DNA of 36,187 bases from a virus (Duplodnaviria; Heunggongvirae; Uroviricota; Caudoviricetes), in IMG/VR virus record IMGVR_UViG_2778261630_000008, positions 1 to 36,187 of that record, one strand, 5' to 3'. The notes beneath the pieces were generated by a model. The model did not search any database. It worked only from the letters and a program-made list of their open reading frames with translations, and was not told the origin of the DNA. The position numbers were made by a program, and so were the translations under genes. Below, in pieces: positions 2,605 through 31,693 of this stretch (the stretch's first letter is position 1; each line of letters starts with the position of its first letter).

Positions 2605-2950
2605 TCTCTGCTCCTGTTGATACGGAAAGGGACACAGGCACACCGTTATTCCGCCGCCCGGTCAGCTCCACCACCATTGAACCGTCAAAATTGCTGTTGA
2701 TGGTGATGGAATCCAGCGTCAACCGTGGCTCCCAGCGACTCAGCGCCACATACACTGCCGACATGACCTGCAGGCGTAATGCCGGATTTTGTGGCTGATC
2801 TATCAGTGCCGACAGCAGGGAACCATATTCCCGGCGGGCAATACGGCTACCCTGCGGTGTCAGCAGAATGTCCCGCACCGACTGGCGCAGATGATCAATA
2901 TCAGTAATGACTTTGCCGCTGGTATTGTTCATCCCGCTATAAAGCGTCAT
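2591..2950 (-). CDS. W: baseplate wedge protein W (gp25-like)
   Basis: 119-aa ORF, GGAGG RBS, start codon overlaps V stop; size and position as P2 gpW. Confidence 0.9.
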   Translation of the reverse strand: MTLYSGMNNTSGKVITDIDHLRQSVRDILLTPQGSRIARREYGSLLSALIDQPQNPALRLQVMSAVYVALSRWEPRLTLDSITINSNFDGSMVVELTGRRNNGVPVSLSVSTGAENGSD

Positions 2951-3525
2951 ACCGGGCCTCCGGTTGTATCGCCGCCTTTCAGGACGCCAGTATGCTGATG
3001 CGCATCAACCACGATCCCGTTAGAACTCATCGCTCCGCCGCCCTGGGTAACGCCACCATTGATCACCACTTCGCTGTTAATGCGCGTGCGGTCAGCCTCC
3101 AGTACAAACTCACTGGTTTTCATGGTGATGTTGTCAGCAGCCTCAATGACCATGGATTTGATGCCCCTGACATACCAGCGCCCGGTGGCGGGTTCGTATT
3201 CAAACCAGCCACCGTCAGGATGTTCTGTCACGCAGGCGTCCGCCGACGTCGACGGTGGTGCGAACTGATTCGAATAGACAGCGGGCAGCGCAAAGGCGGT
3301 TTCCAGATTGCCGCCCAGACTCAGCAGCACCACCTGCTCACCTTCCGATGGTCGCCACCATGTACGGGCATTCCCGGCACGCAGCGTCAGCCAGCTGATC
3401 CAGTTGGTTTCAAGCTCGCCCGTTTTCACCCGGCAAAGCCAGTTTTCCCTGTCCACTTCGGTGACTACCCCTGTGCGGATCAGGTTGGTGATAAGGCGCA
3501 TGATTTCGGTTAATTGTGCGTTCAT
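2947..3525 (-). CDS. V: baseplate spike protein V
   Basis: 192-aa ORF; N-terminus MNAQLTEIMRLITNLIRTG aligns with my memory of P2 gpV; first gene after the S/V intergenic late promoter. Confidence 0.85.
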   Translation of the reverse strand: MNAQLTEIMRLITNLIRTGVVTEVDRENWLCRVKTGELETNWISWLTLRAGNARTWWRPSEGEQVVLLSLGGNLETAFALPAVYSNQFAPPSTSADACVTEHPDGGWFEYEPATGRWYVRGIKSMVIEAADNITMKTSEFVLEADRTRINSEVVINGGVTQGGGAMSSNGIVVDAHQHTGVLKGGDTTGGPV

Positions 3526-3570
3526 AGGGAAAGGTTGCCATCAGGGGAAGAAAGGCGGCAGTGCTGCAAC

Positions 3571-3590
3571 TTGTATCAGTGCTGATACAA
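3571..3590. promoter_or_regulatory. late-promoter activator site (TGT-N12-ACA dyad, Ogr/B/Delta type) upstream of V
   Basis: Perfect 20-bp palindrome TTGTATCAGTGCTGATACAA; TGT 3572..3574, ACA 3587..3589; centre 55 bp upstream of the V start codon. Confidence 0.5.
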
Positions 3591-3593
3591 AGA

Positions 3594-4040
3594 TCACCCC
3601 GCCAGCCATTGCAGAATCATGTCGCGGGTCATTGCCTCAACATCATCATTTACACCCAGAAGGCGACGCTCTGCGTAACGCACCTCCGGTCCCTTACGAC
3701 TGACGCGATCTCGCAGGCCGTAATGGTGAACGCGGGCAATGCGCTGCACCTTGCCTTCAAACTGCACGCTGGCAGAGTCGGTGCTGGCGGCAGTTTTCAG
3801 GTATTTTGTGGTGCGCAGCTTTGCAAACATCTGACGTTTGATGCGCCCCTTCTTGCTGCGTGCTGTTACCCTGCGCGGTTCATAACTGCTGCCATCTGGA
3901 TTGCGCTGCATCCTGATATTCTGCTGCTGTGTCCGGCGCAGTTCCTGCGCCAGCTGGCGCATCATGCGGCTTCTCGTGGCTGGTTCCAGATTCGCCAGCA
4001 AGGCACTCAGCCAGTCGTCCACCTTCTGCAGTTCAGCCAC
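3594..4040 (-). CDS. S: tail completion protein S
   Basis: 148-aa ORF with GTG start overlapping the end of R; size and position as P2 gpS. Confidence 0.8.
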   Translation of the reverse strand: MAELQKVDDWLSALLANLEPATRSRMMRQLAQELRRTQQQNIRMQRNPDGSSYEPRRVTARSKKGRIKRQMFAKLRTTKYLKTAASTDSASVQFEGKVQRIARVHHYGLRDRVSRKGPEVRYAERRLLGVNDDVEAMTRDMILQWLAG

Positions 4041-4464
4041 GTTTCACCGTCCACATTTCTTCAGGTTCATCAGGTTCCGCTATAGCTTCAACACTCGACA
4101 CACTACCGTCAGTGCTGACCAGCACACGCTCCGTCAGTTGCAGGTTCAGGCTGATATCACAGACATCGTTGCGCAGAATATCCACCTCAAAGGTGAATAG
4201 TTTTTCCCGTAACGCCGGGTTATTGATGGCATCGGGCTGGTTATCCCTCAGCCACAGCAAAACCGGGGCCATCAGCAGATTCTGGTCGCCGCTGAAATCC
4301 TCAATCACCGCGTTCAGGGTGTAACGGTACTCCCACGACATGGAGCTGGCCCCCGTGGCAACCAGCGAACCGTTATCCACAAACAGATGCAGTTTGTCCG
4401 GGTTATTGCGGACATAAGGCACCGCTTTATTGAGGGCGTGGCGCAGGGATTGTGGTTTGTTCAC
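4033..4464 (-). CDS. R: tail completion protein R
   Basis: ORF-track start 4485 is TTG; GTG at 4464 has AGGAG 8 nt upstream and gives a product (VNKPQSLRHALNKAV...) that aligns with the P2 gpR N-terminus. Confidence 0.8.
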   Translation of the reverse strand: MNKPQSLRHALNKAVPYVRNNPDKLHLFVDNGSLVATGASSMSWEYRYTLNAVIEDFSGDQNLLMAPVLLWLRDNQPDAINNPALREKLFTFEVDILRNDVCDISLNLQLTERVLVSTDGSVSSVEAIAEPDEPEEMWTVKRG

Positions 4465-4717
4465 TGTTTTGCTCCTGACACGCAATAATCATGTCCACTT
4501 TGTCTGCACAGACCGCCCAGGCGGCCTCCGTTTCATCCAACAACGCGTTCAGATCACCGTTAGTGCGCGGCTCTGCCTGATCCAGCCGACACGGTGTCAC
4601 TCGCGGACAACCACTGACGATAAGCTGCACCTCCGGTGAGCGTCGGACGTTCCCGCAGCCGGATAATGTCAGCAGGCAAAGGAGTATCAGTCCAGCGGCG
4701 TAAATCCTCGTTCTCAC
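4427..4717 (-). CDS. lysC: LysC-type o-spanin (outer-membrane lipoprotein)
   Basis: 96-aa ORF with signal peptide and lipobox (LLCLLTLSGC), embedded out of frame in lysB and running into R as in P2; GTG start. Confidence 0.6.
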   Translation of the reverse strand: MRTRIYAAGLILLCLLTLSGCGNVRRSPEVQLIVSGCPRVTPCRLDQAEPRTNGDLNALLDETEAAWAVCADKVDMIIACQEQNSEQTTIPAPRPQ

Positions 4718-4988
4718 GTTTCAGTTCCTCGATCCGGTGTTGTCGTTGTCTCAGCAGCGCGCTGGTCTGTTCTGCTTCGGCATAGAGCCGCGCCTGCTCC
4801 CGGTTATTGGTTTCAGTCAGAATGGACAGGCTGATAAGCTGGCTGTTGCTCTTTGCCAGTGCCTGGCTTTTGCTCTGCAGCTCGTCTGCCTGCGTGCTAA
4901 TGGTCTGGCTGGCATCAGCCAGCCGCCACGTCTGCCAGCCCAGCGCCGCCAGTAATAACGCCAGCACAACCAGCAGCAACCGGTTCAT
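4560..4988 (-). CDS. lysB: LysB-type i-spanin
   Basis: 142 aa, N-terminal TM helix then coiled-coil-rich periplasmic region; start overlaps lysA stop. Confidence 0.75.
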   Translation of the reverse strand: MNRLLLVVLALLLAALGWQTWRLADASQTISTQADELQSKSQALAKSNSQLISLSILTETNNREQARLYAEAEQTSALLRQRQHRIEELKRENEDLRRWTDTPLPADIIRLRERPTLTGGAAYRQWLSASDTVSAGSGRAAH

Positions 4989-5362
4989 GCTGCTACCTGT
5001 TGCGCCATCTGATTACGGGTGATCCAGAAGGCAATAACGGTCAGTAGATAAAAGACCAGGGTAATAGCCCACCCCGTCCAGGCGAGACTTACAACAATCA
5101 GCAATCGCATCACCCAACTGATAAATACGTTTTCTTTTCGGGTAATTGTCTTCAGTAAAGATGCCCTTAACTCCTGCCAGAGCGGGCCATTCTTAATTAA
5201 CGCAGCCAGTGCTACCGGAATTACCGCCCATGTCAGCAAACAGGCTACCCAAACGCCGGACGCTGCCAGTACCGGAAAAATCCCCTGCGGATACACCATT
5301 GCTGCGATTAACAGCGCCATCCATAACATCAGAAACAGTCCGCTGATTAATTTCTTTTTCAT
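4985..5362 (-). CDS. lysA: LysA-like multi-TM lysis accessory protein
   Basis: Start re-picked at ATG 5362 (MKKKLISGLF..., GGGAG RBS); ~126 aa with four hydrophobic segments; position K-lysA-lysB as in P2. Confidence 0.6.
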   Translation of the reverse strand: MKKKLISGLFLMLWMALLIAAMVYPQGIFPVLAASGVWVACLLTWAVIPVALAALIKNGPLWQELRASLLKTITRKENVFISWVMRLLIVVSLAWTGWAITLVFYLLTVIAFWITRNQMAQQVAA

Positions 5363-5363
5363 T

Positions 5364-5876
5364 TCAGTTTGCTCCCTGTAAACACCAGGCCATCTCCCGC
5401 GCACGGCGGTTATCCAGCCCCTGATTAAACACACCTTTTACATAAACCCAGCGCGGCAACTGTCGGCACGCATCCGCCCAGCGCCGCTGATTGAGCAATT
5501 TCACCAGCGTGGAGCTGCAGGCATTGCCCGTCCCCACGTTGAAGGCAAACGACACCGTAGCGTCATACACCTTCTGTGGTGGCAGTTGCTTCACACACCT
5601 TTCCAGTACCCGCTCCACACGCAGCACGTTGGAGATCAGCCCTTCTGCTGCCTGTCGTTCCGTGATTGTTTTGCCGGGAATGACGCCCGATGTATTACCA
5701 ATGCCGTCGGTCCAGACACCCGCGCTGCACTGATACGGCTGCAGACGACAGCCTTCGTAATCAGCAATCAGTTTCAGCCCCTCCACGGAGGTGTGAAGCT
5801 GCTGAAAACCCGGCAGCGTGGCAGCAATAGCCAGCACGGCCCCGACAAGGCAGCGTTTAACGATTGATGGATTCAT
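5364..5876 (-). CDS. K: endolysin (lysozyme)
   Basis: 170-aa ORF, N-terminal signal-anchor then lysozyme-like domain; position after holin as P2 gpK. Confidence 0.9.
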   Translation of the reverse strand: MNPSIVKRCLVGAVLAIAATLPGFQQLHTSVEGLKLIADYEGCRLQPYQCSAGVWTDGIGNTSGVIPGKTITERQAAEGLISNVLRVERVLERCVKQLPPQKVYDATVSFAFNVGTGNACSSTLVKLLNQRRWADACRQLPRWVYVKGVFNQGLDNRRAREMAWCLQGAN

Positions 5877-6072
5877 AGTCCTCCCGCGAGATCTGCCCGT
5901 CGCGCAGAAGCTGGTAGGATTTGTGTTTGTAGTACCAGTTGATAGCCAGCATCAGTACACCAATCATCAGACCGCCCAGCGTTGAGGCATCCTTGATGGA
6001 CAAATCGCCCAGCCAGGCCAGCACGACGGCGATGCAATACGTGATAAAGGCGCTGATTCGCTCAAGCGTCAT
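5857..6072 (-). CDS. Y: holin
   Basis: 71 aa, two TM helices plus charged C-terminus, immediately upstream of endolysin. Confidence 0.7.
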   Translation of the reverse strand: MTLERISAFITYCIAVVLAWLGDLSIKDASTLGGLMIGVLMLAINWYYKHKSYQLLRDGQISREDYESINR

Positions 6073-6075
6073 AAT

Positions 6076-6279
6076 TCAGTCCCATAGCTGGACGGTCTGC
6101 ACGGTGGTGGTGGTCGGAATGTCCGGCAGCTCCACCTGCAGCCCGTGAGGTAAAAAGGGGCCGTATTCGGCAAGCCCCGGATTTGCCTTCAGTACCTGCT
6201 CCGTGACCCCCTGCGTGCGCCCGTAATGACGCCAGCAAAGCGCGTCCACCGTGTCATACTGATGCGCACGCACTTTCAT
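6076..6279 (-). CDS. X: tail protein X
   Basis: 67 aa, same length as P2 gpX with shared ...YGRT.GV.E.VL.ANPGLAE...LPHG..VELPD... pattern. Confidence 0.85.
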   Translation of the reverse strand: MKVRAHQYDTVDALCWRHYGRTQGVTEQVLKANPGLAEYGPFLPHGLQVELPDIPTTTTVQTVQLWD

Positions 6280-6743
6280 CAGATAAGCTCCACTGTGCAG
6301 TGCGGCGCATCCTGCACTCGGCTGATGGCCCAGCGGGCGTCACGCCACAAATCACCGCTGGCTTCCGCCAGTTCCTCGCCCCGCTTCACACCGGACGCCG
6401 TGGCGTCATAGTCCTGGTATCGTTCGTTGAGCATGGCGCGTGCCCAGCAGTAAACCGCGTTGAAATAGTGCTGAATGCGCTCACTTTTGCCGTCCAGCTG
6501 TTCCGCCGGAACTTCTGCCAGCGAGGCATACCCCAGCATCTGCTGGCGTCTGCGAAACTCATACAGCTCTGCGTTGACCTCCGAAATTGCCGACAGCGCA
6601 ACCTGCTTTAAACGCGGCTGCGTCACCGTGCCGTCAGTGCGCATCACGCTGCGAAACTCCGACAGGTCCACATCAGGCCAGAACGGCGTATTCCTGATGA
6701 TTTCCGCCTGTTCTGGTGCCTGTTCTGGCGCAACAAACTTCAT
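6279..6743 (-). CDS. L: head completion/stabilisation protein L
   Basis: Start re-picked at ATG 6743 (MKFVAPEQ..., AGGAGA RBS 7 nt upstream); stop overlaps X start. Confidence 0.8.
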   Translation of the reverse strand: MKFVAPEQAPEQAEIIRNTPFWPDVDLSEFRSVMRTDGTVTQPRLKQVALSAISEVNAELYEFRRRQQMLGYASLAEVPAEQLDGKSERIQHYFNAVYCWARAMLNERYQDYDATASGVKRGEELAEASGDLWRDARWAISRVQDAPHCTVELI

Positions 6744-6838
6744 GCTGCTTTCTCCTGAAATAGAGGGCGGTGGACGGGGTTTTGATGTGGCAGTGCCTTT
6801 CGCCACCCCGTGCCGCCCGTGCGCGGGGGCACGTTCTG

Positions 6839-7489
6839 TCAGCGGCTGTCATTGCGCAGTCTGCGCTCCAGCTGCTGTTTGTCTTTTTTCACGCCACAGC
6901 GAGGATCGAGCTGTAACGCATGGTTGAGATGATTAAGGGCGGAAGCCGGGTTGCTTTCACTCAGGACAGCGCCAATCGCTTTATGCAGACGCGCCCGTGA
7001 CTGGTCCGGCATATCCAGACCGTCTGTCAGCTCCAGCGTCTGCAGCAACAGATCGGCATCAAAGCCGGTGGCGGCAAGCATTGCGCTCTGCGCCGCGTCT
7101 GCCATTTCCTCTGCCAGCACGGTCTGCACGTTGCGGTTACCCAGCGGCATCACCCAGCCATGACGCAGGGCATGACGCCCGATCTCCAGCGCCCCTGCAT
7201 AATCTCCGGCATCAATGCGCCACAGCATCACGTACATCAGCACGTCATCCTGTTGAGCGCCTCCGGCAGCCAGAACGCCCTCCGCCCAGGCGGCATATTT
7301 CGGCAGCAGCTCCACCTTGATTTCCGCTTTTTTGACCGTGGACTGAACGCCCTTGAGACGGCGGCGGTCTTCCGCCAGTTGCAGCAGCATCAGGTCATAG
7401 CCCGACGCGTGGCGAACACTGCCACCCTCGCGAGCGGCCTGTTCAGCCTGAACGCGCAGGCGATGCTGCCGTGCGGGACTCAGGCTCAT
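6839..7489 (-). CDS. M: terminase endonuclease (small) subunit
   Basis: 216-aa ORF between capsid gene N and L, as in P2. Confidence 0.85.
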   Translation of the reverse strand: MSLSPARQHRLRVQAEQAAREGGSVRHASGYDLMLLQLAEDRRRLKGVQSTVKKAEIKVELLPKYAAWAEGVLAAGGAQQDDVLMYVMLWRIDAGDYAGALEIGRHALRHGWVMPLGNRNVQTVLAEEMADAAQSAMLAATGFDADLLLQTLELTDGLDMPDQSRARLHKAIGAVLSESNPASALNHLNHALQLDPRCGVKKDKQQLERRLRNDSR

Positions 7490-7492
7490 GAA

Positions 7493-8551
7493 TTACGCTC
7501 CGGTTTCTGCTGCGGCGGCGCTGAAGTCACCAATCTGGATGTTTTCCACCAGTGCAGCGCAGCGATAGTCCTCAACCACATAGGCTTCGTTAACGGATTC
7601 AAAATTTTCAATCCGGTCACGTTTCGGGTTGTCGATAACTGAACGGCGGCGGGTATCTTCCTGCCAGTAGATGGACAGGTTATCCAGACGGGTGATCAGC
7701 AGCGCATTCGGCGGGAAGAACGGCGCACGCACCGCCTGCAGGCCACCCATGCGTTTCTGACTGATGATCATATCGGCAGCCAGTTTTTCACTGTTTTCCT
7801 GCTCTTTGTTGACCAGCGGGAAATACTTGTCAGACAGCAGTTCACGACCGCAAATCACCACCAGATCGTCATCGTCCTGGTAGACCACATCGATAAGCTC
7901 ATTGACGGCATCCATCACTACGGCGTCCAGGTTGGCATATTCGCCACCTTTCCCGACTTTCACCGCGCCCGGTGTGGTTTCACCGCCCGTGGTGGTGCTG
8001 CCCATGACGTGATCCGGTGCATCCTCACGGATTTTCTGCAGCCAGCCTTTGTTCACATCCTGCAGCAGCGGGTTTTCGCTACGGTTGGAGGTTTTCGCAC
8101 GCTTCACGCCGTTAAAGCCGATCATGATGCGGTCCAGTGCCTGACGTTTCACGATGGCGTTACGGATACGCACCTGGAAATCCTGAAACTTCGCCCACAG
8201 GTCCAGCTTCGCGTAGGTCAGCACCGTGTCAAAGTTGGTCTGTTCGCATTTGTATTCCACATCGACCATCAGCGTCGGATCGACAGGTTCTCGCTCTTTC
8301 GCGGTGGTATCAGTGGTTCCGGCAATGGTGCTGCCAACACCCAGCCCCAGCAACTGACCAGACTGCTCAGTCACTGGCGTGACGTTAATCAGCGTCAGGA
8401 AAGAGGCGGACTGCTGGATCTGGTCTTCCAGCGTCTGCTGCACGGACGGCTCTACGGTGAACTTGCTGGACAGTTCTTCAACTGCCACACCGTTCAGACG
8501 CGCCAGCTGCTGCAGGTAAGCGTTAAAAGCAAAGCGGGTATTCTTCTTCAT
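7493..8551 (-). CDS. N: major capsid protein
   Basis: 352 aa; size, position and sequence character as P2 gpN. Confidence 0.95.
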   Translation of the reverse strand: MKKNTRFAFNAYLQQLARLNGVAVEELSSKFTVEPSVQQTLEDQIQQSASFLTLINVTPVTEQSGQLLGLGVGSTIAGTTDTTAKEREPVDPTLMVDVEYKCEQTNFDTVLTYAKLDLWAKFQDFQVRIRNAIVKRQALDRIMIGFNGVKRAKTSNRSENPLLQDVNKGWLQKIREDAPDHVMGSTTTGGETTPGAVKVGKGGEYANLDAVVMDAVNELIDVVYQDDDDLVVICGRELLSDKYFPLVNKEQENSEKLAADMIISQKRMGGLQAVRAPFFPPNALLITRLDNLSIYWQEDTRRRSVIDNPKRDRIENFESVNEAYVVEDYRCAALVENIQIGDFSAAAAETGA

Positions 8552-8567
8552 CGGGTTTTGTGCTCCA

Positions 8568-9401
8568 TCAGCAATTGGTCAGAGTGTCAGCGGGGGCGTT
8601 ACCGCCTGTTGCACGCTGGCGGTAGTCCTGGCGGCTGTCTTCATGACTCAGCTTATTCACCAGTTCGTTAAAGGCGGTCTGCTGTGCCTGCAGGGCAGTC
8701 TCCAGCTCAGACAGACGTTCTTCCTGCTCAGACAGGGATTTTTCGGTGCGTGCGCTCAGGTTTTGCTGCTCAGTGGCGACCAGCTCCACGGCCTTATGCA
8801 CATCAGAGAACCGGGCATCGTCGGACTGCTCTTTTTTGGTAAACAGCGCCGTGACACGGGCAAACAGGGACGGTTTGTCCTCCTGGATTTCTTCCAGTTC
8901 GATCACTGTTTCCTCTGCGGCGGTAAAGAGATTGGCGGGATTCTGCTTGCGGTTTGCCAGCGGGTTATGGGCTGCACTGGCGCTGAATGTCAGCATTTCC
9001 GTACCCAAACTGGCAGGGTCATCAGTGGCAGCCAGGCCGACCAGGTAGGCTTTGCCCGTATCAGCGAACTTCGGGCTGACTTCCATAGAGGTGAATAATT
9101 TCTGGCCTTTTTTCACCAATTCCACCAGGGACTCCGTTGGCTCAACGTCGGCATACAGCGCCATCTTGCCTGCCAGCGGGCCTTCCGTGATTTCTTCAGC
9201 AAACAGCGCCGTCACCTTGCCGTAACGGTTAAAGGTGCTGTCCGGGAGATAAGACTTGATGTGCTCAAGGTTAATCAGCGCGGTATACACCGCCGGGTTG
9301 TAGCTGGCTGCCATCTGTTCCAGCCATTCACGCTGGATTTCGCGTCCGTCGGTGGTGGCACCTTCCACCCCGATGCGAAAACGCTTTGCTTTCACTGTCA
9401 T
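8568..9401 (-). CDS. O: capsid scaffolding protein
   Basis: 277 aa with acidic coiled-coil C-terminus; first gene of the leftward O-N-M-L operon. Confidence 0.9.
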   Translation of the reverse strand: MTVKAKRFRIGVEGATTDGREIQREWLEQMAASYNPAVYTALINLEHIKSYLPDSTFNRYGKVTALFAEEITEGPLAGKMALYADVEPTESLVELVKKGQKLFTSMEVSPKFADTGKAYLVGLAATDDPASLGTEMLTFSASAAHNPLANRKQNPANLFTAAEETVIELEEIQEDKPSLFARVTALFTKKEQSDDARFSDVHKAVELVATEQQNLSARTEKSLSEQEERLSELETALQAQQTAFNELVNKLSHEDSRQDYRQRATGGNAPADTLTNC

Positions 9402-9479
9402 GAGCCGTGCTCCGTTAGAAATAACTTACTGGAGCCTTATGGTTGCGGTGATGGGGGCAGTGAAACAATGCGCGGTATT

Positions 9480-9497
9480 TGTACCGACAACCACACA
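9480..9497. promoter_or_regulatory. late-promoter activator site (TGT-N12-ACA) in the O/P divergent region
   Basis: TGT 9480..9482, 12 nt, ACA 9495..9497; centre 55 bp upstream of the P start codon. Confidence 0.5.
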
Positions 9498-9543
9498 AAC
9501 CGCAGGCGGGGAAAGCCTTCATTCAAGGCTGTAGGTTTGTGCC

Positions 9544-11310
9544 ATGAACACCACACTGACACCCGCAGATCTCGATCCCCGTCGGCAGGCCATGCTGCTG
9601 TACTTTCAGGGATACCGCGTAGCCCGCATTGCTGAAATGCTGGGCGAGAAAGTTGCAACCGTTCACAGCTGGAAGAAACGCGACAAGTGGGGTGACTATG
9701 GGCCGCTGGATCAGATGCAGCTCACCACCGCCGCACGTTACTGCCAGCTCATTATGAAGGAGCACAAAGAAGGGAAAGATTTCAAAGAAATTGACCTGCT
9801 GGCGCGCCAGTCGGAGCGCCACGCGCGGATCGGCAAGTTTAACAATGGCGGCAACGAAGCCGACTTAAACCCTAACGTCGCCAACCGCAACAAAGGCCCG
9901 CGCCGTCAGCCGGAAAAGAATGTTTTCACCGATGAACAGATAGAGAAACTGGAAGAAATCTTCCATTCCTCCATGTTCAACTACCAGCGCCACTGGTGGG
10001 AAGCCGGAAAAACCAACCGCATCCGCAACCTGCTGAAGTCACGCCAGATCGGCGCGACCTTTTACTTTGCCCGTGAAGCCCTGATTGACGCCCTGCTTAC
10101 CGGACGTAACCAGATTTTCCTTTCTGCCAGTAAGGCACAGGCTCACGTCTTTAAGCAGTACATCATCGACTTCGCCAAAGAAGTCGAGGTGGAGCTGAAA
10201 GGCGATCCGATGGTGCTTCCTAACGGGGCCACGCTTTACTTCCTCGGTACCAATGCCCGCACGGCGCAGAGTTACCACGGCAACCTGTATCTGGATGAAT
10301 ATTTCTGGATACCGAAATTCCAGGAGTTGCGCAAAGTGGCTTCCGGTATGGCTATTCACAAGAAATGGCGACAAACCTATTTTTCCACGCCATCCAGCCT
10401 GACCCACAGTGCTTATCCGTTCTGGTCCGGTGCGCTGTTCAACCGTGGACGCAACAAAGCTGACAAGGTGGACATCGACCTGTCCCACAGCAATCTGGCC
10501 CCCGGCCTACTGTGCGCAGACGGGCAATACCGCCAGATAGTCACCGTGGAAGATGCGGTGCGCGGCGGCTGTAACCTGTTCGACCTCGACCAGCTGCGCA
10601 TGGAGTACAGCCCGGACGAATACCAGAACCTGCTGATGTGCGAGTTCGTGGACGATCTCGCGTCCGTGTTCCCGCTCAGCGAACTGCAGGCGTGCATGGT
10701 GGACAGCTGGGAAGTCTGGACCGACTTTCATGCACTGGCCCTGCGCCCGTTTGGCTGGCGCGAAGTGTGGATCGGTTATGACCCGGCAAAAGGTACGCAG
10801 AACGGCGACAGTGCCGGATGCGTGGTGGTGGCTCCGCCAGCCGTGCCGGGTGGTAAGTTCCGCATTCTTGAGCGTCACCAGTGGCGCGGGATGGACTTCC
10901 GCGCCCAGGCTGACGCCATCAAAAAACTGACCGAACAGTATAACGTGACCTATATCGGTATCGACTCGACCGGCGTCGGTCACGGGGTTTACGAGAACGT
11001 GAAAGCGTTTTTTCCTGCCGTCAGGGAGTTTGTCTATAACCCCAACGTTAAAAACGCCCTGGTACTCAAGGCCTACGACATTATCAGCCACCGCCGTCTG
11101 GAGTTTGACGCCGGGCACACCGACATTGCGCAGTCATTTATGGCAATCCGTCGCGCTACCACTGCCAGTGGCAACCGCCCGACCTATGAAGCCAGCCGCA
11201 GCGAAGAAGCCAGCCATGCCGATCTGGCCTGGGCAACAATGCACGCACTGTTTAACGAACCGCTGCAGGGCGAGTCCGCCAATACCAGCAATATTGTGGA
11301 GATTTTTTGA
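9544..11310 (+). CDS. P: terminase ATPase (large) subunit
   Basis: 588 aa; divergent from O as in P2; stop overlaps Q start (TGATG). Confidence 0.95.
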   Translation: MNTTLTPADLDPRRQAMLLYFQGYRVARIAEMLGEKVATVHSWKKRDKWGDYGPLDQMQLTTAARYCQLIMKEHKEGKDFKEIDLLARQSERHARIGKFNNGGNEADLNPNVANRNKGPRRQPEKNVFTDEQIEKLEEIFHSSMFNYQRHWWEAGKTNRIRNLLKSRQIGATFYFAREALIDALLTGRNQIFLSASKAQAHVFKQYIIDFAKEVEVELKGDPMVLPNGATLYFLGTNARTAQSYHGNLYLDEYFWIPKFQELRKVASGMAIHKKWRQTYFSTPSSLTHSAYPFWSGALFNRGRNKADKVDIDLSHSNLAPGLLCADGQYRQIVTVEDAVRGGCNLFDLDQLRMEYSPDEYQNLLMCEFVDDLASVFPLSELQACMVDSWEVWTDFHALALRPFGWREVWIGYDPAKGTQNGDSAGCVVVAPPAVPGGKFRILERHQWRGMDFRAQADAIKKLTEQYNVTYIGIDSTGVGHGVYENVKAFFPAVREFVYNPNVKNALVLKAYDIISHRRLEFDAGHTDIAQSFMAIRRATTASGNRPTYEASRSEEASHADLAWATMHALFNEPLQGESANTSNIVEIF

Positions 11311-12344
11311 TGGGAAAGAGTAAGAAGAACCGCGCTGCGTCGACGAAACAGATCCAGAATAAAAGCCAGACTTCAGCCGAAGCATTCAGCTTCGGTGATC
11401 CCGTTCCTGTTCTGGACCGCCGCGAACTGCTGGACTATGTGGAATGCGTACAGATGGATCGTTGGTACGAGCCGCCTGTGAGTTTCGACGGACTGGCGCG
11501 AACCTTCCGCGCCGCCGTGCATCACAGCTCACCGATTGCAGTGAAGTGCAACATTCTGACCAGCACCTACATCCCTCACCCGCTGCTCAGCCAGCAGGCT
11601 TTTTCGCGTTTTGTACAGGACTATCTGGTTTTTGGTAACGCCTACCTGGAGAAACGCACAAACCGCTTCGGTGAAGTTATCGCCCTTGAGCCTGCACTGG
11701 CAAAATACACCCGACGCGGGTTAGACCTTGATACCTACTGGTTTGTGCAATACGGCATGACTACGCAGCCGTATCAGTTCACGAAAGGCAACATTTTTCA
11801 TCTGATGGAACCGGACATCAACCAGGAGATCTACGGCCTGCCTGGTTATCTTTCTGCCATTCCGTCAGCTCTGCTCAACGAGTCCGCCACGCTGTTCCGC
11901 CGCAAGTATTACATTAACGGCAGTCATGCAGGCTTCATCATGTACATGACCGATGCAGCGCAGAACCAGGAGGATGTGAACAACCTCCGCAATGCGATGA
12001 AAAGCGCCAAAGGTCCTGGTAACTTCCGTAACCTGTTTATGTACTCGCCTAACGGTAAAAAGGACGGGCTTCAGATTATCCCGTTGTCAGAAGTGGCGGC
12101 GAAGGATGAGTTCCTGAATATCAAGAACGTGAGCCGGGACGACATGATGGCGGCGCATCGTGTGCCGCCACAAATGATGGGGATAATGCCTAATAATGTC
12201 GGGGGGTTTGGGGATGTGGAGAAGGCCAGTCGCGTATTTGTACGTAATGAATTAACGCCCTTGCAAAAAAGGCTACAAGAGCTGAACGACTGGCTGGGCG
12301 AAGAAGTGATTAAATTTACGCCCTATATTCTTTCAGAAGAATAA
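11310..12344 (+). CDS. Q: portal protein
   Basis: ORF-track start 11307 is TTG; ATG at 11310 gives 344 aa, the P2 gpQ length. Confidence 0.95.
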   Translation: MGKSKKNRAASTKQIQNKSQTSAEAFSFGDPVPVLDRRELLDYVECVQMDRWYEPPVSFDGLARTFRAAVHHSSPIAVKCNILTSTYIPHPLLSQQAFSRFVQDYLVFGNAYLEKRTNRFGEVIALEPALAKYTRRGLDLDTYWFVQYGMTTQPYQFTKGNIFHLMEPDINQEIYGLPGYLSAIPSALLNESATLFRRKYYINGSHAGFIMYMTDAAQNQEDVNNLRNAMKSAKGPGNFRNLFMYSPNGKKDGLQIIPLSEVAAKDEFLNIKNVSRDDMMAAHRVPPQMMGIMPNNVGGFGDVEKASRVFVRNELTPLQKRLQELNDWLGEEVIKFTPYILSEE

Positions 12345-12352: not shown

Positions 12353-13051
12353 TTATTTGTTTCTTCTTTGTTCACGCCTTGTCTTGGCTTCGATAAGGCG
12401 TTGAGGTTCAGTGTAAAGCCGTTCTAAAAAAAGATAGGTAAAATCTTCAAGATCCTCAGCAGCAGCTTTATCCAAAATACCTTCATGCGCTCCATCATTT
12501 CCGTCATCTTTAACGCATTCAGCTAGTTCCCTTAAAGCTTCAGGCAGTAGATGATTATCAAATAACCACTCCATTCTTAACCCTAGGCTTCTCCTTATTT
12601 TTTGCGCAGGCCCTTGCTCCCCATCAGGAAGAAGTCCTTTTGTGGCATAATCAAGGCAAAGCCTAAACATGGTTGCTGCTGCATTATAACAACCTATAGC
12701 CAAACATTTCGCCCCTTCCTCATATGCACTATTGATATGCTCAGGTAAGAACTCTGGTGGCTCCTCTACTGCTAAGTCTGCCGGTGATATAGGCCTAACA
12801 ACCTCTGCAACTTCCTTTAAGCCGAATATTCCACTTTCCCAATTATAGCCATCTAAAGTTTTATTTTTCGTTAAAGGTCTGCAAAGAAACATTGTCGTTT
12901 TATGACACTCTCGGCAAACACAATAGACCTCGTACTCGTATGTTTTACCCCCGCCCAATGCATTGTAAACCCTAGTGCAATTCAGCCCATTAACATCAAA
13001 CGCTATTTTTTGTGATCCACATCGTGGACAGTCATCTACTAACATAACCAT
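12353..13051 (-). CDS. cargo protein, 232 aa: N-terminal 4-Cys zinc ribbon plus helical C-terminal domain (possibly DUF4145-like); function unknown
   Basis: ATG 13051 with GGGAGGAG RBS; CPRC...CVCRECH cysteine pairs; more AT-rich than the phage backbone; inserted between the portal stop and cos. Confidence 0.6.
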   Translation of the reverse strand: MVMLVDDCPRCGSQKIAFDVNGLNCTRVYNALGGGKTYEYEVYCVCRECHKTTMFLCRPLTKNKTLDGYNWESGIFGLKEVAEVVRPISPADLAVEEPPEFLPEHINSAYEEGAKCLAIGCYNAAATMFRLCLDYATKGLLPDGEQGPAQKIRRSLGLRMEWLFDNHLLPEALRELAECVKDDGNDGAHEGILDKAAAEDLEDFTYLFLERLYTEPQRLIEAKTRREQRRNK

Positions 13052-13160
13052 GTCAATTACTCCTCCCTATGAAAAAAATGAGTTGAAAAATTGAATATTC
13101 ACGACTTAAAAAGCTAGCCTATTTAACACCATAATTTCATTAATTCAACCATGAGCGCGC

Positions 13161-13180
13161 GCTCGTATCCCCGCCACGCC
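13161..13180. other. cos site of the prophage (186-type variant)
   Basis: Minus-strand GGCGTGGCGGGGATACGAGC shares the first 13 nt with the 186 cohesive end as I recall it; the flanks align base-for-base with the satellite cos region at 27011..27060. Confidence 0.55.
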
Positions 13181-13225: not shown

Positions 13226-13250
13226 AAAAGCCCGCCAGAACTGGGCGGGC
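13226..13250 (-). terminator. rho-independent terminator downstream of the 433-aa cargo gene
   Basis: GCCCGCC / GGCGGGC stem (13230..13236 with 13244..13250) followed on the minus strand by TTTT. Confidence 0.5.
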
Positions 13251-13475: not shown

Positions 13476-14777
13476 TTATTCGGTTAAATTTTTCAATGGC
13501 GCACCTGGAAGATGATGATGAACAAACTTACCTTTATATTCAATATGATAGCAAAGTAACATATAGAACAATGTTAGGCATGAGTTATAATTTTTAACAT
13601 TTTCTTGCCAAGAATGTTCTTTAAAATGTTTTGCGTGCGCAGATCTATTTCTTGCTTTATACCAAGTTGTAGCTAACTCTTCTGGAAAAAATCCTTTTTT
13701 TGCCATATTAAAAAGAGTTCCTTTGACCGAGGATCTTCCACCTTTTTCTAGCAATTGAATAATCGAAGATTTAACTCTCTCGTTTATTTCAAGGTTTTCT
13801 ATCACAGGCTTAGACTCACAACATAAACTGGAAAACTCAACATCTTCTATTTTAAAAGTAGAGTAAAATTTATTTATTACACCTTCAATTGAAACAGTTA
13901 GACTGAGAGTTTCATTTTCTAAATCAGATTGATGAGCATTAAATATCTTTCTCCAATAATAGTAAAAGGTTTTATCAGTCTCGAATTTTTTAATGTATGC
14001 TTGCGAAAATTGCACCCATTCATTTAGATAATATGGAGCTCTTTGAGGAATAAAAGTCATCAGCCTCTGTTTTTCTTTATTATCAATATGCTTAAATATC
14101 AATAACCTACTGTCATTCCCTTGCCACAACACTAAAGCAGGATTGAGTAGAACCCCAGATGCAACGGACAATGAATCTAGAATACTTTTAGCATATAAAT
14201 AAGAAAAATCATCATCAGAATCAAGACAAATCCTAGTGTATTTATCCTCTAAAAGAATGCTAACATTTATATTATTCAACGAAAATACGGATCTCGTCCT
14301 ACGCTTCCCTTCCTCACCTAAGTCTTGAAATTCATTACAAGGGATATTAATTTTTTGCGGGATGAAAAATATTACTTTATGTTTTTTAAAATCCCCATCT
14401 ATTTTTCTTTTTATTTCATAAAGCTCACAATCAATGCTTACCCCTTGTTGTGAAGCATTGATATTTACATATGGGTCAACATCTTTTGCTTGCCATAAAT
14501 ACCCATTCAAATCAATCGCATTCATAGAAAAAAGATATTCACTACCGATGATTTCTCCATAATCAAGATGATTATATGTTGGGCATGTGCTAAATTGAGC
14601 ATCAGTTTCTTTATGTAAGAACTTTAGATGAATTTTATTATTTTTATAATAAAAAAATCCAGAACCTGTAAACATTTTTGGATTTTCATTAGTTTGTTGT
14701 GTGAGAGTCACCTCAATTAATTCATGAGTAAATGAACCAGCCAATAGTTCTTCAATTTTTTCTTTAACAATGTTCAC
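13476..14777 (-). CDS. cargo protein, 433 aa, strongly AT-rich; C-terminal HEPN-like R-N-x3-H motif; candidate anti-phage / abortive-infection effector
   Basis: GTG 14777 with AAGGAAGGA RBS; motif WYKARNRSAHAKHF near the C-terminus; sits at the cos-to-gene-A accessory locus (old/tin position of P2); composition contrasts with the backbone. Confidence 0.7.
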   Translation of the reverse strand: MNIVKEKIEELLAGSFTHELIEVTLTQQTNENPKMFTGSGFFYYKNNKIHLKFLHKETDAQFSTCPTYNHLDYGEIIGSEYLFSMNAIDLNGYLWQAKDVDPYVNINASQQGVSIDCELYEIKRKIDGDFKKHKVIFFIPQKINIPCNEFQDLGEEGKRRTRSVFSLNNINVSILLEDKYTRICLDSDDDFSYLYAKSILDSLSVASGVLLNPALVLWQGNDSRLLIFKHIDNKEKQRLMTFIPQRAPYYLNEWVQFSQAYIKKFETDKTFYYYWRKIFNAHQSDLENETLSLTVSIEGVINKFYSTFKIEDVEFSSLCCESKPVIENLEINERVKSSIIQLLEKGGRSSVKGTLFNMAKKGFFPEELATTWYKARNRSAHAKHFKEHSWQENVKNYNSCLTLFYMLLCYHIEYKGKFVHHHLPGAPLKNLTE

Positions 14778-15034: not shown

Positions 15035-15268
15035 TTAATGCAGCCAGCTGTCGTCTTCCCACACCTTCTGCATAATTTTCATCACTTGTTTTCTTTCTTC
15101 ATCCAGTTGCAGTCCGGTTAGTTCCACACCGTTAGAGCTACCTTTGCGAATGCGAATTACCGTTTTGGGATACAGGGGGCGCAGATTGCGGTAAAGCTCG
15201 GATTCAAGGGCGTTCAGGGTAGACTGGCTAATCTTCTGCTCTTTATCGATCATTATTTCAATGCGCAT
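15035..15268 (-). CDS. DinI-family protein
   Basis: ATG 15268 with GAGGTGA RBS; 77 aa (MRIEIMIDK...VWEDDSWLH) resembling DinI as recalled; second gene of a LexA-box operon. Confidence 0.8.
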   Translation of the reverse strand: MRIEIMIDKEQKISQSTLNALESELYRNLRPLYPKTVIRIRKGSSNGVELTGLQLDEERKQVMKIMQKVWEDDSWLH

Positions 15269-15278
15269 AAAAGTCACC

Positions 15279-15467
15279 TCAGCTGATGACATCCATTGAG
15301 CGGTTGTATTCGTGGCTTCTGATTTTTGCCATGAGTTCATCAGTCAATTCAGAAACCCACTGCAGAGCCAGCCCCTTCTCTTCATCACTACACTCACTAG
15401 CCGCTACAAGCTTAAGAAAAAAATCAATGCGCTGGAGCTTCAAAGACTCCAAAAAATAGTCCTGCAT
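15279..15467 (-). CDS. small SOS-operon protein at the Tum (antirepressor) position of 186
   Basis: 62-aa ORF, ATG 15467 with AGGAGGAA RBS, ~40 bp downstream of a LexA box; function inferred from position only. Confidence 0.5.
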   Translation of the reverse strand: MQDYFLESLKLQRIDFFLKLVAASECSDEEKGLALQWVSELTDELMAKIRSHEYNRSMDVIS

Positions 15468-15619: not shown

Positions 15620-18034
15620 TTAATACAGGTTCCGCCACTTATCATCTTCCTGCAAACGCTGGTTCCGATAGAAGACACGCAGGCCTGCTCCTGACGGAAT
15701 ACTGCCGCCGCGAAGGAGTAAATCGACCTCTTTCTCGCTGCCATCAAATCCTCTGGACTTCAGTTCATAGACGAGCTGCTGTCGCTGATGGTCTGTAATT
15801 CGCTGTTTGTAGTCTTTACGCCGTTTCGGTTTCACCTGGCGTAACCTTGCAGCCAGTTCCCGGCGCTCTTTTTTGCTCATACTGTGCAGGTAATCGTGCA
15901 ACTCCTTGTCATTCATACGGGTAATATCCGTTCTGGAGTCCCCATCAGCTGATTTGTCTTTCCCTTGTTGGTTCAAATTTTCAGCAAGGGGACAGTTATT
16001 GCCACGAGTCCAAGGGGCGCAAGCGCCCTGGTCGGCTGCCGCCTCCTGAACGTCAACGGCCTTACGAACCATTTTCCACTTCACTGCATGAGTGCAGATC
16101 TTGCCCTCTGCAATGGGTGACCAGATGCCATAAATACGAATACCGTGATCGCCATAGGCGGTTGGCTCTTCGTTGATTTCATAAGCGGTTCTGATGAGGT
16201 GATATTTGCGGGGAACCAGTACGCCGCCCTGCTTCATGATGTAGGTGGCAAAACAACCAGCATCAGCAGCAGCCAGGATGGCATCAAGGCGCGGGTTATC
16301 CAGTACCGGCGCACCTGCTTTTTTGTCACCCTGTTGCCTTGCCGCCTGACCAGCCAGCAATCGCAGTTCACGGTAAGCCTGACGCCCCGGAATGCCAAAG
16401 AAGCGGAATTGCTGAACACGATGCAGAGACGCCCAGGCATTAACATATTCAGCGTTATCACGCAGGGATTTACCCGTTTCCTTACTGATCTCGCCAGCCA
16501 GACCACGCCCGTCAATATTCTTACTGATATATTTCGCAATGTAGCTTGTCGGCGTTCCTTTGCGCGGGTTTATCAGCTCAGACTTAAAGCGTGGCCCCGT
16601 GTTATTGCCCAGCTCCTCGCGGTCTTCTCGGATGGCAAACTTACGCAACAATGCAGTAATGGCGCGGCGGTCTTTTTTGCGCATGAAACACAACAGGTGC
16701 CAGTGAACTGTGCCGTCATGATGCGGCTCAGCCACCCGCACGCCATACCAGCGCAACCCGGCTTTGTGCATAGCCTTACGAAATGCAGCAAACATGCCGA
16801 CCAGATAATCGCTGCTTTGTCTTACTGTCGCGTTGGTCCAGGTCGGGTTTGGCCTGCCGTTATTTAGCGTGGAATGGAAACGTGACGGACAGGTGATGGT
16901 GTAGAAAACGGCGCAGTCACCACGCATTTCCGCGATAAGCTCCAGGCCTTTAACACAGGCCATCATCTCGTTGCGGCGATGCGCCGGGTTGCTGCTGCTG
17001 GCGTTTACCACATCCTCCATGTTCAGCGTGTCGCCGTCTTCGTTCACCAGTTCATGAGAACGGAAAAACTCCAGCGACTTACGGCGCTGCTCACGTTTAT
17101 GCATCACGGCTTCATAGCTGACATAGGGAGATGCTTTTTTGCTGACCAGGCAGACAGCACGCAACTGCTCTTCCCGCCATTCGCAACGCATCTTCCATAA
17201 TTTCCGATACCACCAGTCGGCGCACAGCATACGCGCCAGCGAACCCGGAATGAGTTCATAAGGCACAGGTTTGCGGCGGTTTCTTTTCCGGCGGAGTTGC
17301 TCAAACGCAGGCGGTATGACATCCAGTCGCAGGGTTTCTGCAGCCACCTTTTCCCATGTCTTGCGGATTTCTTCTGGCTTAACATCATCGGAGGCGTACA
17401 AATCACCACAAGCGGCATCAAGACACATGCTCATATGCGCAGCGACAAGGGTAGACAGGCGTTTCACCTGATCCTGACTCATTTCAGGCAGGATCAGCAG
17501 ACCGTCCAGCCCTTCATGGCTTGCCATAAAACGAAAAGATGCAGATAGCTGGCTGTCGCGTACATGCTCCAGTCGTTCCAGACATGGCTTAATCGTCTCA
17601 CGCAAATAGCGGGAATAAGCCTTTGGCCTGCCCAGGCTGCTGAAATATTCAATACGTTGCATCAGCGGCTTGCTGATATGGGAAGGCTGGGCGTTGACGT
17701 CAGCCAGAATGACCATATCCGGATTAAAACGCTGCTGCTCATGCGCCAGCTTTGCCCGGCTAATGAGCTTATCCTGCTCCATTTCGCGTTGGACAGGATC
17801 ACGGGATTCATTAAAGAAATAACGCTCCCAGACCTGATCACTCAGTGCCTCGCGGCGCAGTTGTTCCTGCTCGTTATCGGTAGCGTACAGAGTGATCAGG
17901 TTTGAAAGCGCAGAAACCGGCGCAACTTCCGCCGGGTCCAGATAAGGGTTAATGGCCTTTTTCGGGCTGTTCCATGAGAATGCTGCGGCGACCTTGTTAA
18001 AGCCGCTGCAGTTGTTCATATCAGCATGGCTCAT
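15620..18034 (-). CDS. A: replication initiation endonuclease (rolling-circle initiator)
   Basis: 804-aa ORF, convergent with Q across cos as in P2; start overlaps dam stop (ATGA). Confidence 0.95.
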
Positions 18035-21712: not shown

Positions 21713-22753
21713 ATGACCATCAGAAAACAGCCGAACGGAAAATGGTTGTGTGAGTGCTATCCCAATGGACGCAATGGTAAGCGCGTGCGTAAGCAATTTG
21801 CTACCAAAGGCGAAGCCATTGCGTTTGAAAGCTTCACAATGGAAGAAGTGAACAAAAAACCATGGCTAGGGGAAAAGGAAGATCGGCGACATCTATCAGA
21901 ATTAATTGAGCTGTGGTATTCCCTGTATGGTCAAACACTCGCAGACCCCAAGCGCCTCATGGCGAAACTTAGAATTATCTGTAATGGTCTAGGCGATCCC
22001 ATCGCCTCAGAACTGACAGCTGGTGAGTTTACGAAATACCGCGAAGCACGGTTAAAAGGTGAAGTACGAAATGAAGATGGCACGCTTATGTCGCCAGTTA
22101 AGCCCCGCACGGTAAATCTTGAACAGCGCAACCTATCATCTGTTTTTGGTACACTGAAAAAGCTGGGCCACTGGTCAGCCCCCAACCCGCTTGCTGGGCT
22201 GCCAACATTTAAAATTGCTGAGGGTGAATTGGCGTTCCTGACCCCGGAAGAAATTAAACGTCTGCTGGATGCCTGTGCTGATTCTCAAAGCCCCAGTCTG
22301 CTGATGATTGCAAAAATATGCTTGGCCACCGGCGCACGCTGGAGCGAAGCCGAAAACCTACAGAGTCATCAGGTATCAAAATACCGTATCACTTATACCA
22401 AGACTAAAGGAAAGAAAAACCGAACAGTGCCTATTTCAAAGGATTTATATGAAGAACTGCCTAAGAATAGGGGAAAATTATTTACACCTTGTAGGAAAGC
22501 TTTTGAACGTGCGGTAAAACGAGCTGGTATCGAGCTACCAGAAGGGCAATGCACACACGTATTACGACATACATTTGCAAGTCACTTTATGATGAATGGC
22601 GGAAACATACTGGTGCTGCGCGATATTCTGGGCCATGTCGATATAAAAATGACAATGATTTACGCCCACTTCGCTCCCGACCATCTGGAAGATGCTGTAA
22701 CCAAAAATCCTCTTGCTAACCTTGGATGGAGAAAATTAGAAAGTGCTTGTTAA
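21713..22753 (+). CDS. int: tyrosine integrase
   Basis: 346 aa with C-terminal R...H.LRHT...Y catalytic region; 4 bp after cI stop. Confidence 0.9.
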   Translation: MTIRKQPNGKWLCECYPNGRNGKRVRKQFATKGEAIAFESFTMEEVNKKPWLGEKEDRRHLSELIELWYSLYGQTLADPKRLMAKLRIICNGLGDPIASELTAGEFTKYREARLKGEVRNEDGTLMSPVKPRTVNLEQRNLSSVFGTLKKLGHWSAPNPLAGLPTFKIAEGELAFLTPEEIKRLLDACADSQSPSLLMIAKICLATGARWSEAENLQSHQVSKYRITYTKTKGKKNRTVPISKDLYEELPKNRGKLFTPCRKAFERAVKRAGIELPEGQCTHVLRHTFASHFMMNGGNILVLRDILGHVDIKMTMIYAHFAPDHLEDAVTKNPLANLGWRKLESAC

Positions 22754-22859
22754 TAACTATATCCAACAATACCCATGGATATCGTACTTACTTATCATAA
22801 TATATTTTATATATATATGCCTTGAATTATATCTATGCGTATCAAAAAAAGGCTTTAAC

Positions 22860-25297: not shown

Positions 25298-25346
25298 AAA
25301 ACGATTTCAGTCCAAGCAACTATTAAAATTCAATAGATTGGGGACT

Positions 25347-26931: not shown

Positions 26932-27019
26932 TACAATCTCCTTTCACTCATTTAAAGGGGAGGCTGAAAAGGAGTTATCTTATATACTTTTTGTAAATTA
27001 TTTCAATCTTTTGCGCGCA

Positions 27020-27038
27020 GTGCTTTCCCCGCCTCGCC
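27020..27038. other. cos site of the satellite (P2/P4 type)
   Basis: GTGCTTTCCCCGCCTCGCC is the reverse complement of GGCGAGGCGGGGAAAGCAC, the 19-nt P2/P4 cohesive end as I recall it. Confidence 0.8.
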
Positions 27039-27140
27039 CGCCCGCTTTGCGGGGCGGTTTTAATGCAGTTTCACTGACACGCTCAGGCCGCGCCGGGAAT
27101 GGCGCGGTCTGCAGAAAATGAGGCAGGAAAACGCATGCAA

Positions 27141-27172
27141 AGCCATGCACCTTATCGATGCATGGCTTTTTT
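27141..27172. terminator. stem-loop terminator between cos and psu
   Basis: AGCCATGCA / TGCATGGCT 9-bp stem with T-run on the plus side and A-run on the other; could terminate the sid-delta-psu transcript. Confidence 0.45.
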
Positions 27173-27202
27173 CAGTAAAAACAGGCGGATTTTCGGGGAA
27201 TT

Positions 27203-27775: not shown

Positions 27776-27848
27776 CGTTATCTCTTTCTCATCATGCTGA
27801 AGAATAAAAATACGGTGTGCGGCGACGGCCGGGGTTAACCGGCAGCCC

Positions 27849-29080: not shown

Positions 29081-29114
29081 TTTCCGGCTCCTCGTCACTT
29101 CAGGTTAAGAAAAT

Positions 29115-31679: not shown

Positions 31680-31693
31680 AGGAGAACAACACC

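Follow-up and report, generated by a model that had tools for sequence, protein, structure and literature searches.

A 36,187-nt viral sequence (IMG/VR record IMGVR_UViG_2778261630_000008; this whole stretch is referred to here as the window) contains a P2-like prophage in which a gene for a 232-amino-acid (aa) protein lies between the portal gene Q and the cohesive-end site, cos. Profile comparisons place this protein, here called the cargo protein, as a true but remote homolog of RAZR, a ring-activated zinc-finger RNase, with the same architecture of an N-terminal four-cysteine (Cys4) zinc ribbon and a C-terminal DUF4145 (HEPN) domain. The gene is accessory, its relatives are distributed in the manner of a mobile gene, and it lies in a known defense hotspot; on balance, we favor the view that its product is an antiphage defense protein whose effect depends on a HEPN RNase that is switched on by a trigger. 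Earlier publications describe the hotspot, the domain, the architecture, and how the nearest relative works, and the gene itself has been catalogued. Three points are new: this catalogued DUF4145 cargo is linked to RAZR; a large sister family is defined, with a presumed sensor domain of its own and an active site that appears to tolerate either Arg or Lys; and a gene for a homolog of a portal sensor is found next to a portal gene. The features on which the analysis rests are as follows.

12353..13051, minus strand: cargo gene, encoding the 232-aa zinc-ribbon and DUF4145/HEPN protein (open reading frame [ORF], Pfam, PADLOC, and PHROG)
12881..13051, minus strand: N-terminal Cys4 zinc-ribbon domain, aa 1 to 57, with CPRC at 8 to 11 and CREC at 46 to 49 (translation)
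12407..12742, minus strand: C-terminal DUF4145 (divergent HEPN) domain, aa 104 to 215 (translation, Pfam, hhalign, and BLASTP)
12485..12511, minus strand: putative active-site motif KDDGNDGAH (K181...H189), which aligns with RIVGNQAVH (R146...H154) of RAZR
13060-13067, minus strand: Shine-Dalgarno sequence GGGAGGAG, 8 nt 5′ of the cargo ATG (read from the sequence)
11310..12344, plus strand: portal gene Q (Pfam Phage_portal and RefSeq annotation of an identical locus)
13162..13180, minus strand: cos, with the predicted 19-nt cohesive end GGCGTGGCGGGGATACGAG (pattern match and alignment to P2 cosL)
13226..13250, minus strand: hairpin with T-run, GCCCGCC-N7-GGCGGGC-TTTT, between a 433-aa gene and cos (read by eye)

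Homology of the cargo protein to RAZR

RAZR, formerly PD-T7-4, was described from Escherichia coli UMB1727 (PDB 9Y9C; Zhang et al., Nature 2026, PMC13017515); Vassallo et al. 2022 (PMC9519451) termed PD-T7-4 a "Zn finger-HEPN" protein. It combines a Cys4 ribbon with a DUF4145 HEPN RNase domain and is harmless alone, but it polymerizes as a 24-mer around T7-like portal rings or an Erf-like recombinase ring, a trigger that suffices to activate it, and the activated protein cleaves single-stranded RNA nonspecifically, leading to arrest of translation and abortive infection (PMC13017515). The substitutions R146A and H154A each abolish defense, and the zinc-finger domain, which sets specificity, is the most variable region of the protein (PMC13017515).

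Several comparisons connect the cargo protein to this system. First, PD-T7-4 was the only PADLOC model that it matched (E = 1.2e-6, 26.1 bits), with model positions 39 to 165 of 211 aligned to residues 36 to 200, and other members of the cargo clade match the model from position 15 to 175/186. Second, a reference family was available in the form of Streptococcus phage Javan263 gp9, a bona fide RAZR-family member that scores 235.9 bits on the PD-T7-4 model. The Javan263 gp9 family profile matches chain OA of PDB 9Y9C at 251 bits, the 9Y9C sequence reproduces the published R29, Y31, R35, T41, E43, and AGN at 68 to 70, and several ∼210-aa proteobacterial members of the family have R146, H154, and Q140 at the published positions. 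This match and these residue positions mean that the reference family is the RAZR family. Third, hhalign aligned the cargo family with Javan263 gp9 as a single sequence at 96.5% probability over 187 columns, both CxxC pairs included, and with the RAZR family at 97.9% probability (E = 6e-13). Finally, BLASTP aligned the cargo protein with RAZR-Ec at 25% identity over 136 aa, a stretch that takes in the proline-rich linker, where P99 and P103, invariant in the cargo family, align with the PNPDMP of RAZR. K181 aligns with R146 of RAZR and H189 with H154. Taken at the level of sequence profiles, the cargo family would be a sister family of RAZR rather than a group within it.

Both systems are single proteins of similar size (219 aa for RAZR and 232 aa for the cargo protein), in which an N-terminal Cys4 ribbon is followed by a proline-rich linker and then by a DUF4145/HEPN domain at the C terminus; both have a basic residue followed after seven positions by His, with identical spacing and within a G-N-x-x-x-H context; and in both the sensor domain, presumed as such in the cargo protein, is the variable part and the gene is found on mobile elements. 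There are also differences. Identity is just 25% in the HEPN half, and the cargo HEPN domain has an 8-residue insertion (the SLGLRMEW region, with conserved R159 and W162). Moreover, the cargo gene occupies the Q-cos slot of a P2-like prophage, and the RNase activity, oligomer, trigger, and phenotype of its product are putative.

The family was delimited by an exhaustive HMMER scan of 1.84 billion representatives, in which 927 matched with E ≤ 1e-3, 137 of them with E ≤ 1e-30; residue counts were taken from 120 near-full-length representatives. The four-cysteine ribbon seen in the first-pass annotation is borne out by conservation: C8, C11, C46, and C49 are invariant in 117 of 117 close homologs and are kept in ∼106 to 116 of the 120 diverse representatives, the exceptions being mostly N-terminal gaps. 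The domain is predicted to bind zinc and is presumed to be the sensor. A second metal site formed by four further cysteines, C116, C121, C132, and C179 of the HEPN domain, was considered and dropped; these residues exchange with Ala, Ser, Thr, and Val across the 120 representatives. Mean column entropy is 2.05 bits in the ribbon domain, 2.64 bits in the segment that follows, and 1.01 bits in the HEPN part. The ribbon and the linker segment after it are therefore the variable part of the protein.

The C-terminal half was assigned with more than one method. Pfam DUF4145 (PF13643) matches residues 114 to 203 (E = 4.5e-7, 30.3 bits against a curated cutoff of 23.1), a span that covers the block for which a DUF4145 resemblance had earlier been proposed, and correctly so. 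DUF4145 is a HEPN family whose motif is "mostly conserved (80%)" and for which zinc-ribbon fusions have been noted (Anantharaman et al. 2013, PMC3710099). The motif spacing in the cargo protein is K-x7-H, as the spacing in RAZR is R-x7-H; the Anantharaman definition is Rx4-6H in a four-helix core. A single-sequence AF2 model was poor (predicted local distance difference test score [pLDDT], 39.5) and even in this model the DUF4145 part is predicted to be helical.

Four positions (E112, R130, N185, and H189) are essentially fixed among the 120 representatives. At position 181, 67 of them have R, 42 have K, 5 have Q, and 6 have another residue, and these are interleaved at all identity levels; the residues other than R or K, found in few family members, are Gln, Thr, His, and Ser. 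An apparent invariance of Lys181 (116 of 117 homologs from a word-indexed search) was rejected as an ascertainment artifact when the HMMER scan showed R, K, or Q at this position. Since Arg and Lys swap freely beside a fixed Asn and His, the pattern of substitution argues that the active site of the family is functional and that a basic residue is required at 181.

Other families share the domain. PHROG 1305, labeled "DNA binding protein," gives a full-length match (E = 9.5e-53), and its phage members (for example, Shigella phage POCJ13 gp20 and Stx phage 75/02) share the zinc-ribbon and DUF4145 architecture. These lambdoid members lie in moron-rich regions of temperate phages, beside HigBA and a Ren-like exclusion gene; they differ from the cargo protein in having only ∼25% identity to it and in retaining Arg at the catalytic position. 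The PHROG label was probably prompted by the zinc ribbon and is then a misnomer. DS-38 (DefensePredictor), BxaP (BREX associated), and Ishtar1 (antiplasmid) likewise have DUF4145/HEPN as the presumed effector, and DS-38 also has a zinc finger. They are built differently, DS-38 being 366 aa long, BxaP having a HEAT-like C terminus, and Ishtar having its HEPN domain at the N terminus. Identity of the cargo protein with DS-38 (WP_001313577) was ruled out by that length, and the "putative HEPN" that Rousset tested (pFR103) is a different protein.

An accessory gene in the cos-proximal hotspot

The cargo protein is RefSeq WP_000245245 and is 100% identical to CARTA_1 of phage Cartapus. The first-pass annotation had described a 232-aa ORF with its own strong ribosome-binding site in the gap between Q and cos, transcribed from the cos side, and the ORF, the GGGAGGAG element, and a cos core were all found. 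The 12-nt core, GGCGTGGCGGGG, is at 13169-13180, where a pattern search had a chance expectation of 0; the core can be aligned base by base with the beginning of P2 cosL, the predicted cohesive end being aligned to cosL positions 1 to 19, and cos is annotated at the corresponding place in the Cartapus record. The exact cleavage positions are those expected from these alignments. From cos to the cargo start codon is 110 bp, and the gene is read from there toward Q, which ends at 12344; the two genes are convergent, with stop codons 8 nt apart. In P2 itself, the Q stop and cosL are separated by 167 bp (close enough to the ∼100 bp given earlier), with only a terminator in between, compared to an interval of ∼820 bp occupied by the cargo gene here. 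Replication gene A is at 15620-18034, and the cargo gene and cos thus lie between A and Q. The composition, described earlier as more AT-rich than the backbone, is indeed so: the cargo ORF has 41.6% GC, compared to 51.6% in Q, 56.5% in P, and 56.2% across positions 1 to 12344 of the window.

Upstream of the cargo gene come ∼110 bp, then cos, and then the hairpin at 13226-13250. This hairpin is likely a terminator that shields the DUF4145 gene from upstream transcription; it was absent from the minus-strand list of a consensus terminator scan. A sigma-70 scan upstream of the cargo gene gave no convincing promoter, and by eye a weak TTGAAT-17-TAAATA can be made out.

The gene is accessory, not core, as had been proposed. 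Among 5,426 complete E. coli genomes, 43 have it, for the most part at 99 to 100% nucleotide identity, compared to 1,258 genomes that have a related portal gene; ∼3% of these carry it. The phylogenetic spread was assessed by scanning one genome per species, with neighborhoods determined for the best 80 loci. Relatives of the cargo protein were found in 136 species of many phyla. Among the best 80 loci (marker tblastn), five are beside a P2-type portal gene, one is beside a P4-type integrase, and 74 are beside neither. In ten sampled non-P2 loci the neighbors include tyrosine integrase, resolvase, transposases, PIN_12, TIR, and HEPN_RiboL-PSP proteins, a second DUF4145 protein, and, in one of the ten, a phage Rha-type regulator. 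This distribution is the footprint of a mobile defense-type gene that has been captured by enterobacterial P2-like phages.

The location had been called unusual, and this does not hold. The cos-proximal gpA-gpQ interval of P2-like phages is a published defense hotspot, for which Rousset 2022 (PMC9122126) counted 1,650 arrangements among 18,150 loci, and the same interval appears in Vassallo 2022 (PMC9519451) as "P2 defence hotspot #1." WP_000245245 is itself listed in Table S5A of the former, for example in the arrangement "hypothetical + hypothetical + DUF4145 + hypothetical + DinI"; the DUF4145 cargo is catalogued there but is not among the systems cloned and tested (PMC9122126). The relevant passages of both papers define the hotspot as the gpA-gpQ interval and single out no slot on the Q side (PMC9122126 and PMC9519451). 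P2 has cargo at the same locus (old and tin), all of it on the gpA side of cos, whereas its Q-cos gap is empty. A comparison of the Q-cos interval across relatives, which the first-pass annotation had suggested, showed it to be variable: in this slot Klebsiella phage ST512-KPC3phi13.2 has an Abi gene, phage 4LV2017 has a retron reverse transcriptase with an effector, and phage 500465-1 has a TIR protein gene. The Q side of cos is thus a regular cargo slot.

Within P2-type loci the placement of the DUF4145 gene is constant. It always abuts Q, with cos ∼100 bp upstream (four E. coli loci, Cartapus, and five other species), in carriers that reach down to 52% protein identity. The cargo across cos varies among carriers and may be two small hypothetical proteins, DUF2971, DUF6575 with a hypothetical protein, a P-loop NTPase, or a 433-aa protein. 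These differing partners mean that the DUF4145 gene is an independent module.

The portal gene also varies in relation to the cargo. Portal genes of noncarriers cease aligning 35 to 75 nt before the Q stop (12270-12344; loci L001, L009-L012, and L019-L021). The portal tail ...EEVIKFTPYILSEE (KFTPYIL-EE) is common to carriers of close DUF4145 alleles, and other tails occur with alleles of ≤59% identity. From these alignments, recombination on the left side of the cargo module seems to have its boundary within the 3′ end of Q. Coadaptation of portal and cargo was set aside as an explanation of the shared tails, which are read instead as linkage through a breakpoint in the Q 3′ end.

Two further observations concern the ends of phage genomes. 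Gordonia phage Meyran, an unrelated actinophage, encodes at 94-783 a zinc-ribbon and DUF4145 homolog with 27% identity. This is gene 1, at the extreme left end of the genome, by the cohesive ends and directly ahead of the terminase genes, a parallel to the cos-proximal site. At the E. coli L3_E36 locus (5970-7088), the partner across cos is a DUF2971 protein, and DUF2971 partners occur in some prophages. The DefensePredictor tables contain a validated system, DS-45, with the construct "2971," taken from its name to be a DUF2971 protein. In the DUF2971 variant of the hotspot, one validated and one candidate defense gene may therefore flank cos.

Proposed mechanism and competing explanations

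The first-pass annotation had read the gene as a moron or defense gene at an unusual site. As set out above, the site is not unusual; defense, given the homology to RAZR and the genomic contexts, is the best reading. In the mechanism that we consider the likeliest, the gene would be horizontally acquired defense cargo of the cos-proximal hotspot, encoding a RAZR-type single-protein sensor-effector. The variable Cys4 zinc-ribbon domain would bind a protein of a superinfecting phage, and this recognition would drive or reshape oligomerization, so that the DUF4145/HEPN domains at the C terminus adopt the geometry of an active dimer. These domains would then cut RNA nonspecifically, translation would stop, and the infection would be aborted, which would shield the lysogen population and hence the prophage.

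Several points weigh against this interpretation. First, the cargo protein scores 26 bits on the PD-T7-4 model compared to 236 for a true member, a remote similarity. Second, the cargo-family profile found no match in the PDB (hmmsearch, E ≤ 10) though RAZR is present there, and PDB sequence searches with the cargo protein itself as the query found nothing relevant. Third, the protein has Lys where RAZR needs an essential Arg, and the RAZR R146/H154 motif as defined is absent from it; Lys at 181 may be functional in place of Arg. Fourth, the zinc ribbon can be aligned to that of RAZR at the profile level only and, unlike in RAZR, is followed by ∼25 extra, highly variable residues before the linker. 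Because of this difference and the extra residues, the trigger and the assembly geometry of RAZR are not transferable to the cargo protein. Finally, the literature searched contains no experiment on the cargo clade.

The trigger is probably different from that of RAZR because the sensor domain differs. By analogy it could still be a phage protein ring, which we regard as possible and rather doubtful. A more specific version, which we consider improbable, is that a RAZR-type ring sensor has been domesticated by a phage that builds its own portal ring and encodes the sensor 8 nt from the portal gene; the resident portal would be selected to evade the sensor, and rival portals or recombinase rings would trigger it. 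Cartapus, in E. coli LF82, has the identical gene and still produces encapsidated genomes, which means that the resident portal causes no complete self-abort. As a functional temperate phage with a sensor gene beside its portal gene, it would provide, if the protein defends, a test case for how self-activation is avoided at induction. If the domesticated-sensor reading is true, sensor and portal would be a natural self/nonself pair for supramolecular pattern recognition, and the protein might act on other P2-like phages or on P4-type satellites that borrow the helper capsid.

Four other explanations were weighed against defense. The one that survives best, though we think it quite unlikely, is that the gene is selfish, a HEPN module of the toxin or addiction type that does nothing against phages. 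Among HEPN proteins, many serve as the toxin in toxin-antitoxin systems (PMC3710099), and the cargo gene travels with integrases and transposases. However, no conserved antitoxin-like neighbor accompanies it: in P2-type loci the flanks are Q and cos, and in the ten sampled non-P2 loci the neighbors differ from locus to locus. In addition, its homolog RAZR is nontoxic alone and needs a phage trigger.

Less likely again is a DNA-binding or regulatory protein of the phage life cycle, such as a cos-proximal packaging or transcription factor. A zinc ribbon, a start codon 110 bp from cos, the full-length match to PHROG 1305 with its "DNA binding protein" label, and the Meyran homolog, gene 1 by a genome end, would all suit such a role. 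But the PHROG label is annotation only, and the gene is absent from P2 and from ∼97% of the E. coli genomes with a related portal gene. The homologs are mostly outside phages, and conservation is seen in the HEPN domain, which has the catalytic-type motif, rather than in the ribbon.

The third explanation, to which we give still less credence, is counterdefense: a weakened RAZR-like protein would act as a decoy that coassembles or competes with a RAZR-type sensor of the host and so shields the portal ring of the phage. RAZR senses portal rings, its R146A mutant is inactive, the cargo protein has K at that position, and all P2-type loci examined have the cargo gene directly beside the portal gene. 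Nevertheless, the interchange of R and K with N185, H189, and R130 kept has the look of an active enzyme, and the sensor domain is unlike that of RAZR, which makes coassembly unlikely. Protection of the portal is not a general role in any case, since association with P2 or P4 is lacking in 74 of the 80 species-level loci (marker tblastn). Only ∼3% of related prophages carry the gene.

The weakest explanation is that the cargo gene and the 433-aa gene on the other side of cos (13476-14777) make up one two-gene system. It has in its favor that each is an AT-rich cargo gene, that the two share a strand and the hotspot, and that the neighbor has an invariant HEPN-type KARNxSAH motif, but it is hardly credible given at least five different partners across cos, which largely refute the pairing, a hairpin terminator and cos between the genes, their separation on the packaged linear genome, and the finding by tblastn of a 433-aa homolog in none of the 80 species loci.

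If, as we favor, the cargo protein defends, the RAZR mechanism would extend to a large sister family of 137 clusters (50% identity, E ≤ 1e-30) in many phyla, with a different sensor domain and with Arg or Lys tolerated at the catalytic position. Defense annotation tools probably miss this family (26 bits on PD-T7-4), though it recurs in a well-studied hotspot.

Other elements in the window

Further cargo and a satellite lie on the other side of cos and beyond the prophage.

13476-14777, minus strand: 433-aa cargo gene across cos (ORF; 30.8% GC)
15035-15340, minus strand: DinI-family ORF, 101 aa as the longest ORF, with the DinI domain at residues 38 to 100
22743-23789, plus strand: 348-aa ORF between the P2-like and P4-like integrases, with a weak match to the PADLOC "2TM effector" (E = 2e-4)
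∼24104-34027: P4-like satellite, with integrase, Psu, a delta-like gene, and an alpha primase-helicase
25347-26931, minus strand: HEC-07-like gene (PADLOC candidate; NsnC-like similarity) in the int-psu hotspot of the satellite
27027-27038, minus strand: cos core of the satellite

The 433-aa protein has no Pfam, PADLOC, PHROG, or NCBIfam match. Its small orphan family comprises 14 clusters, from Enterobacterales and one Pseudomonas, in which a C-terminal KARNxSAH is invariant and corresponds to the canonical HEPN R-N-x3-H. On this motif, it is a candidate HEPN defense protein in the same hotspot. The N-terminal extension of the DinI-family ORF is probably an artifact of ORF calling; relatives are annotated at 77 aa. 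The 348-aa ORF has no Pfam match and may be further cargo at the prophage-satellite junction.

The P4-like satellite is directly downstream of the integrase of the P2-like prophage, and chromosomal csiD comes next, at 35210. It lies ∼11 kb from the cargo locus and has its own cos. The first 26 nt of this cos are identical to those of P2 (GGCGAGGCGGGGAAAGCACTGCGCGC), whereas the cos of the neighboring prophage differs (GGCGTGGCGGGGATACGAG), a mismatch that raises the question of whether the terminase of this prophage can package this satellite. The HEC-07-like gene is split into two overlapping ORFs, with 26248-26931 corresponding to model positions 36 to 255 and 25347-26423 to positions 333 to 551. 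The split points to a frameshift or pseudogene, or else to an error in sequencing.

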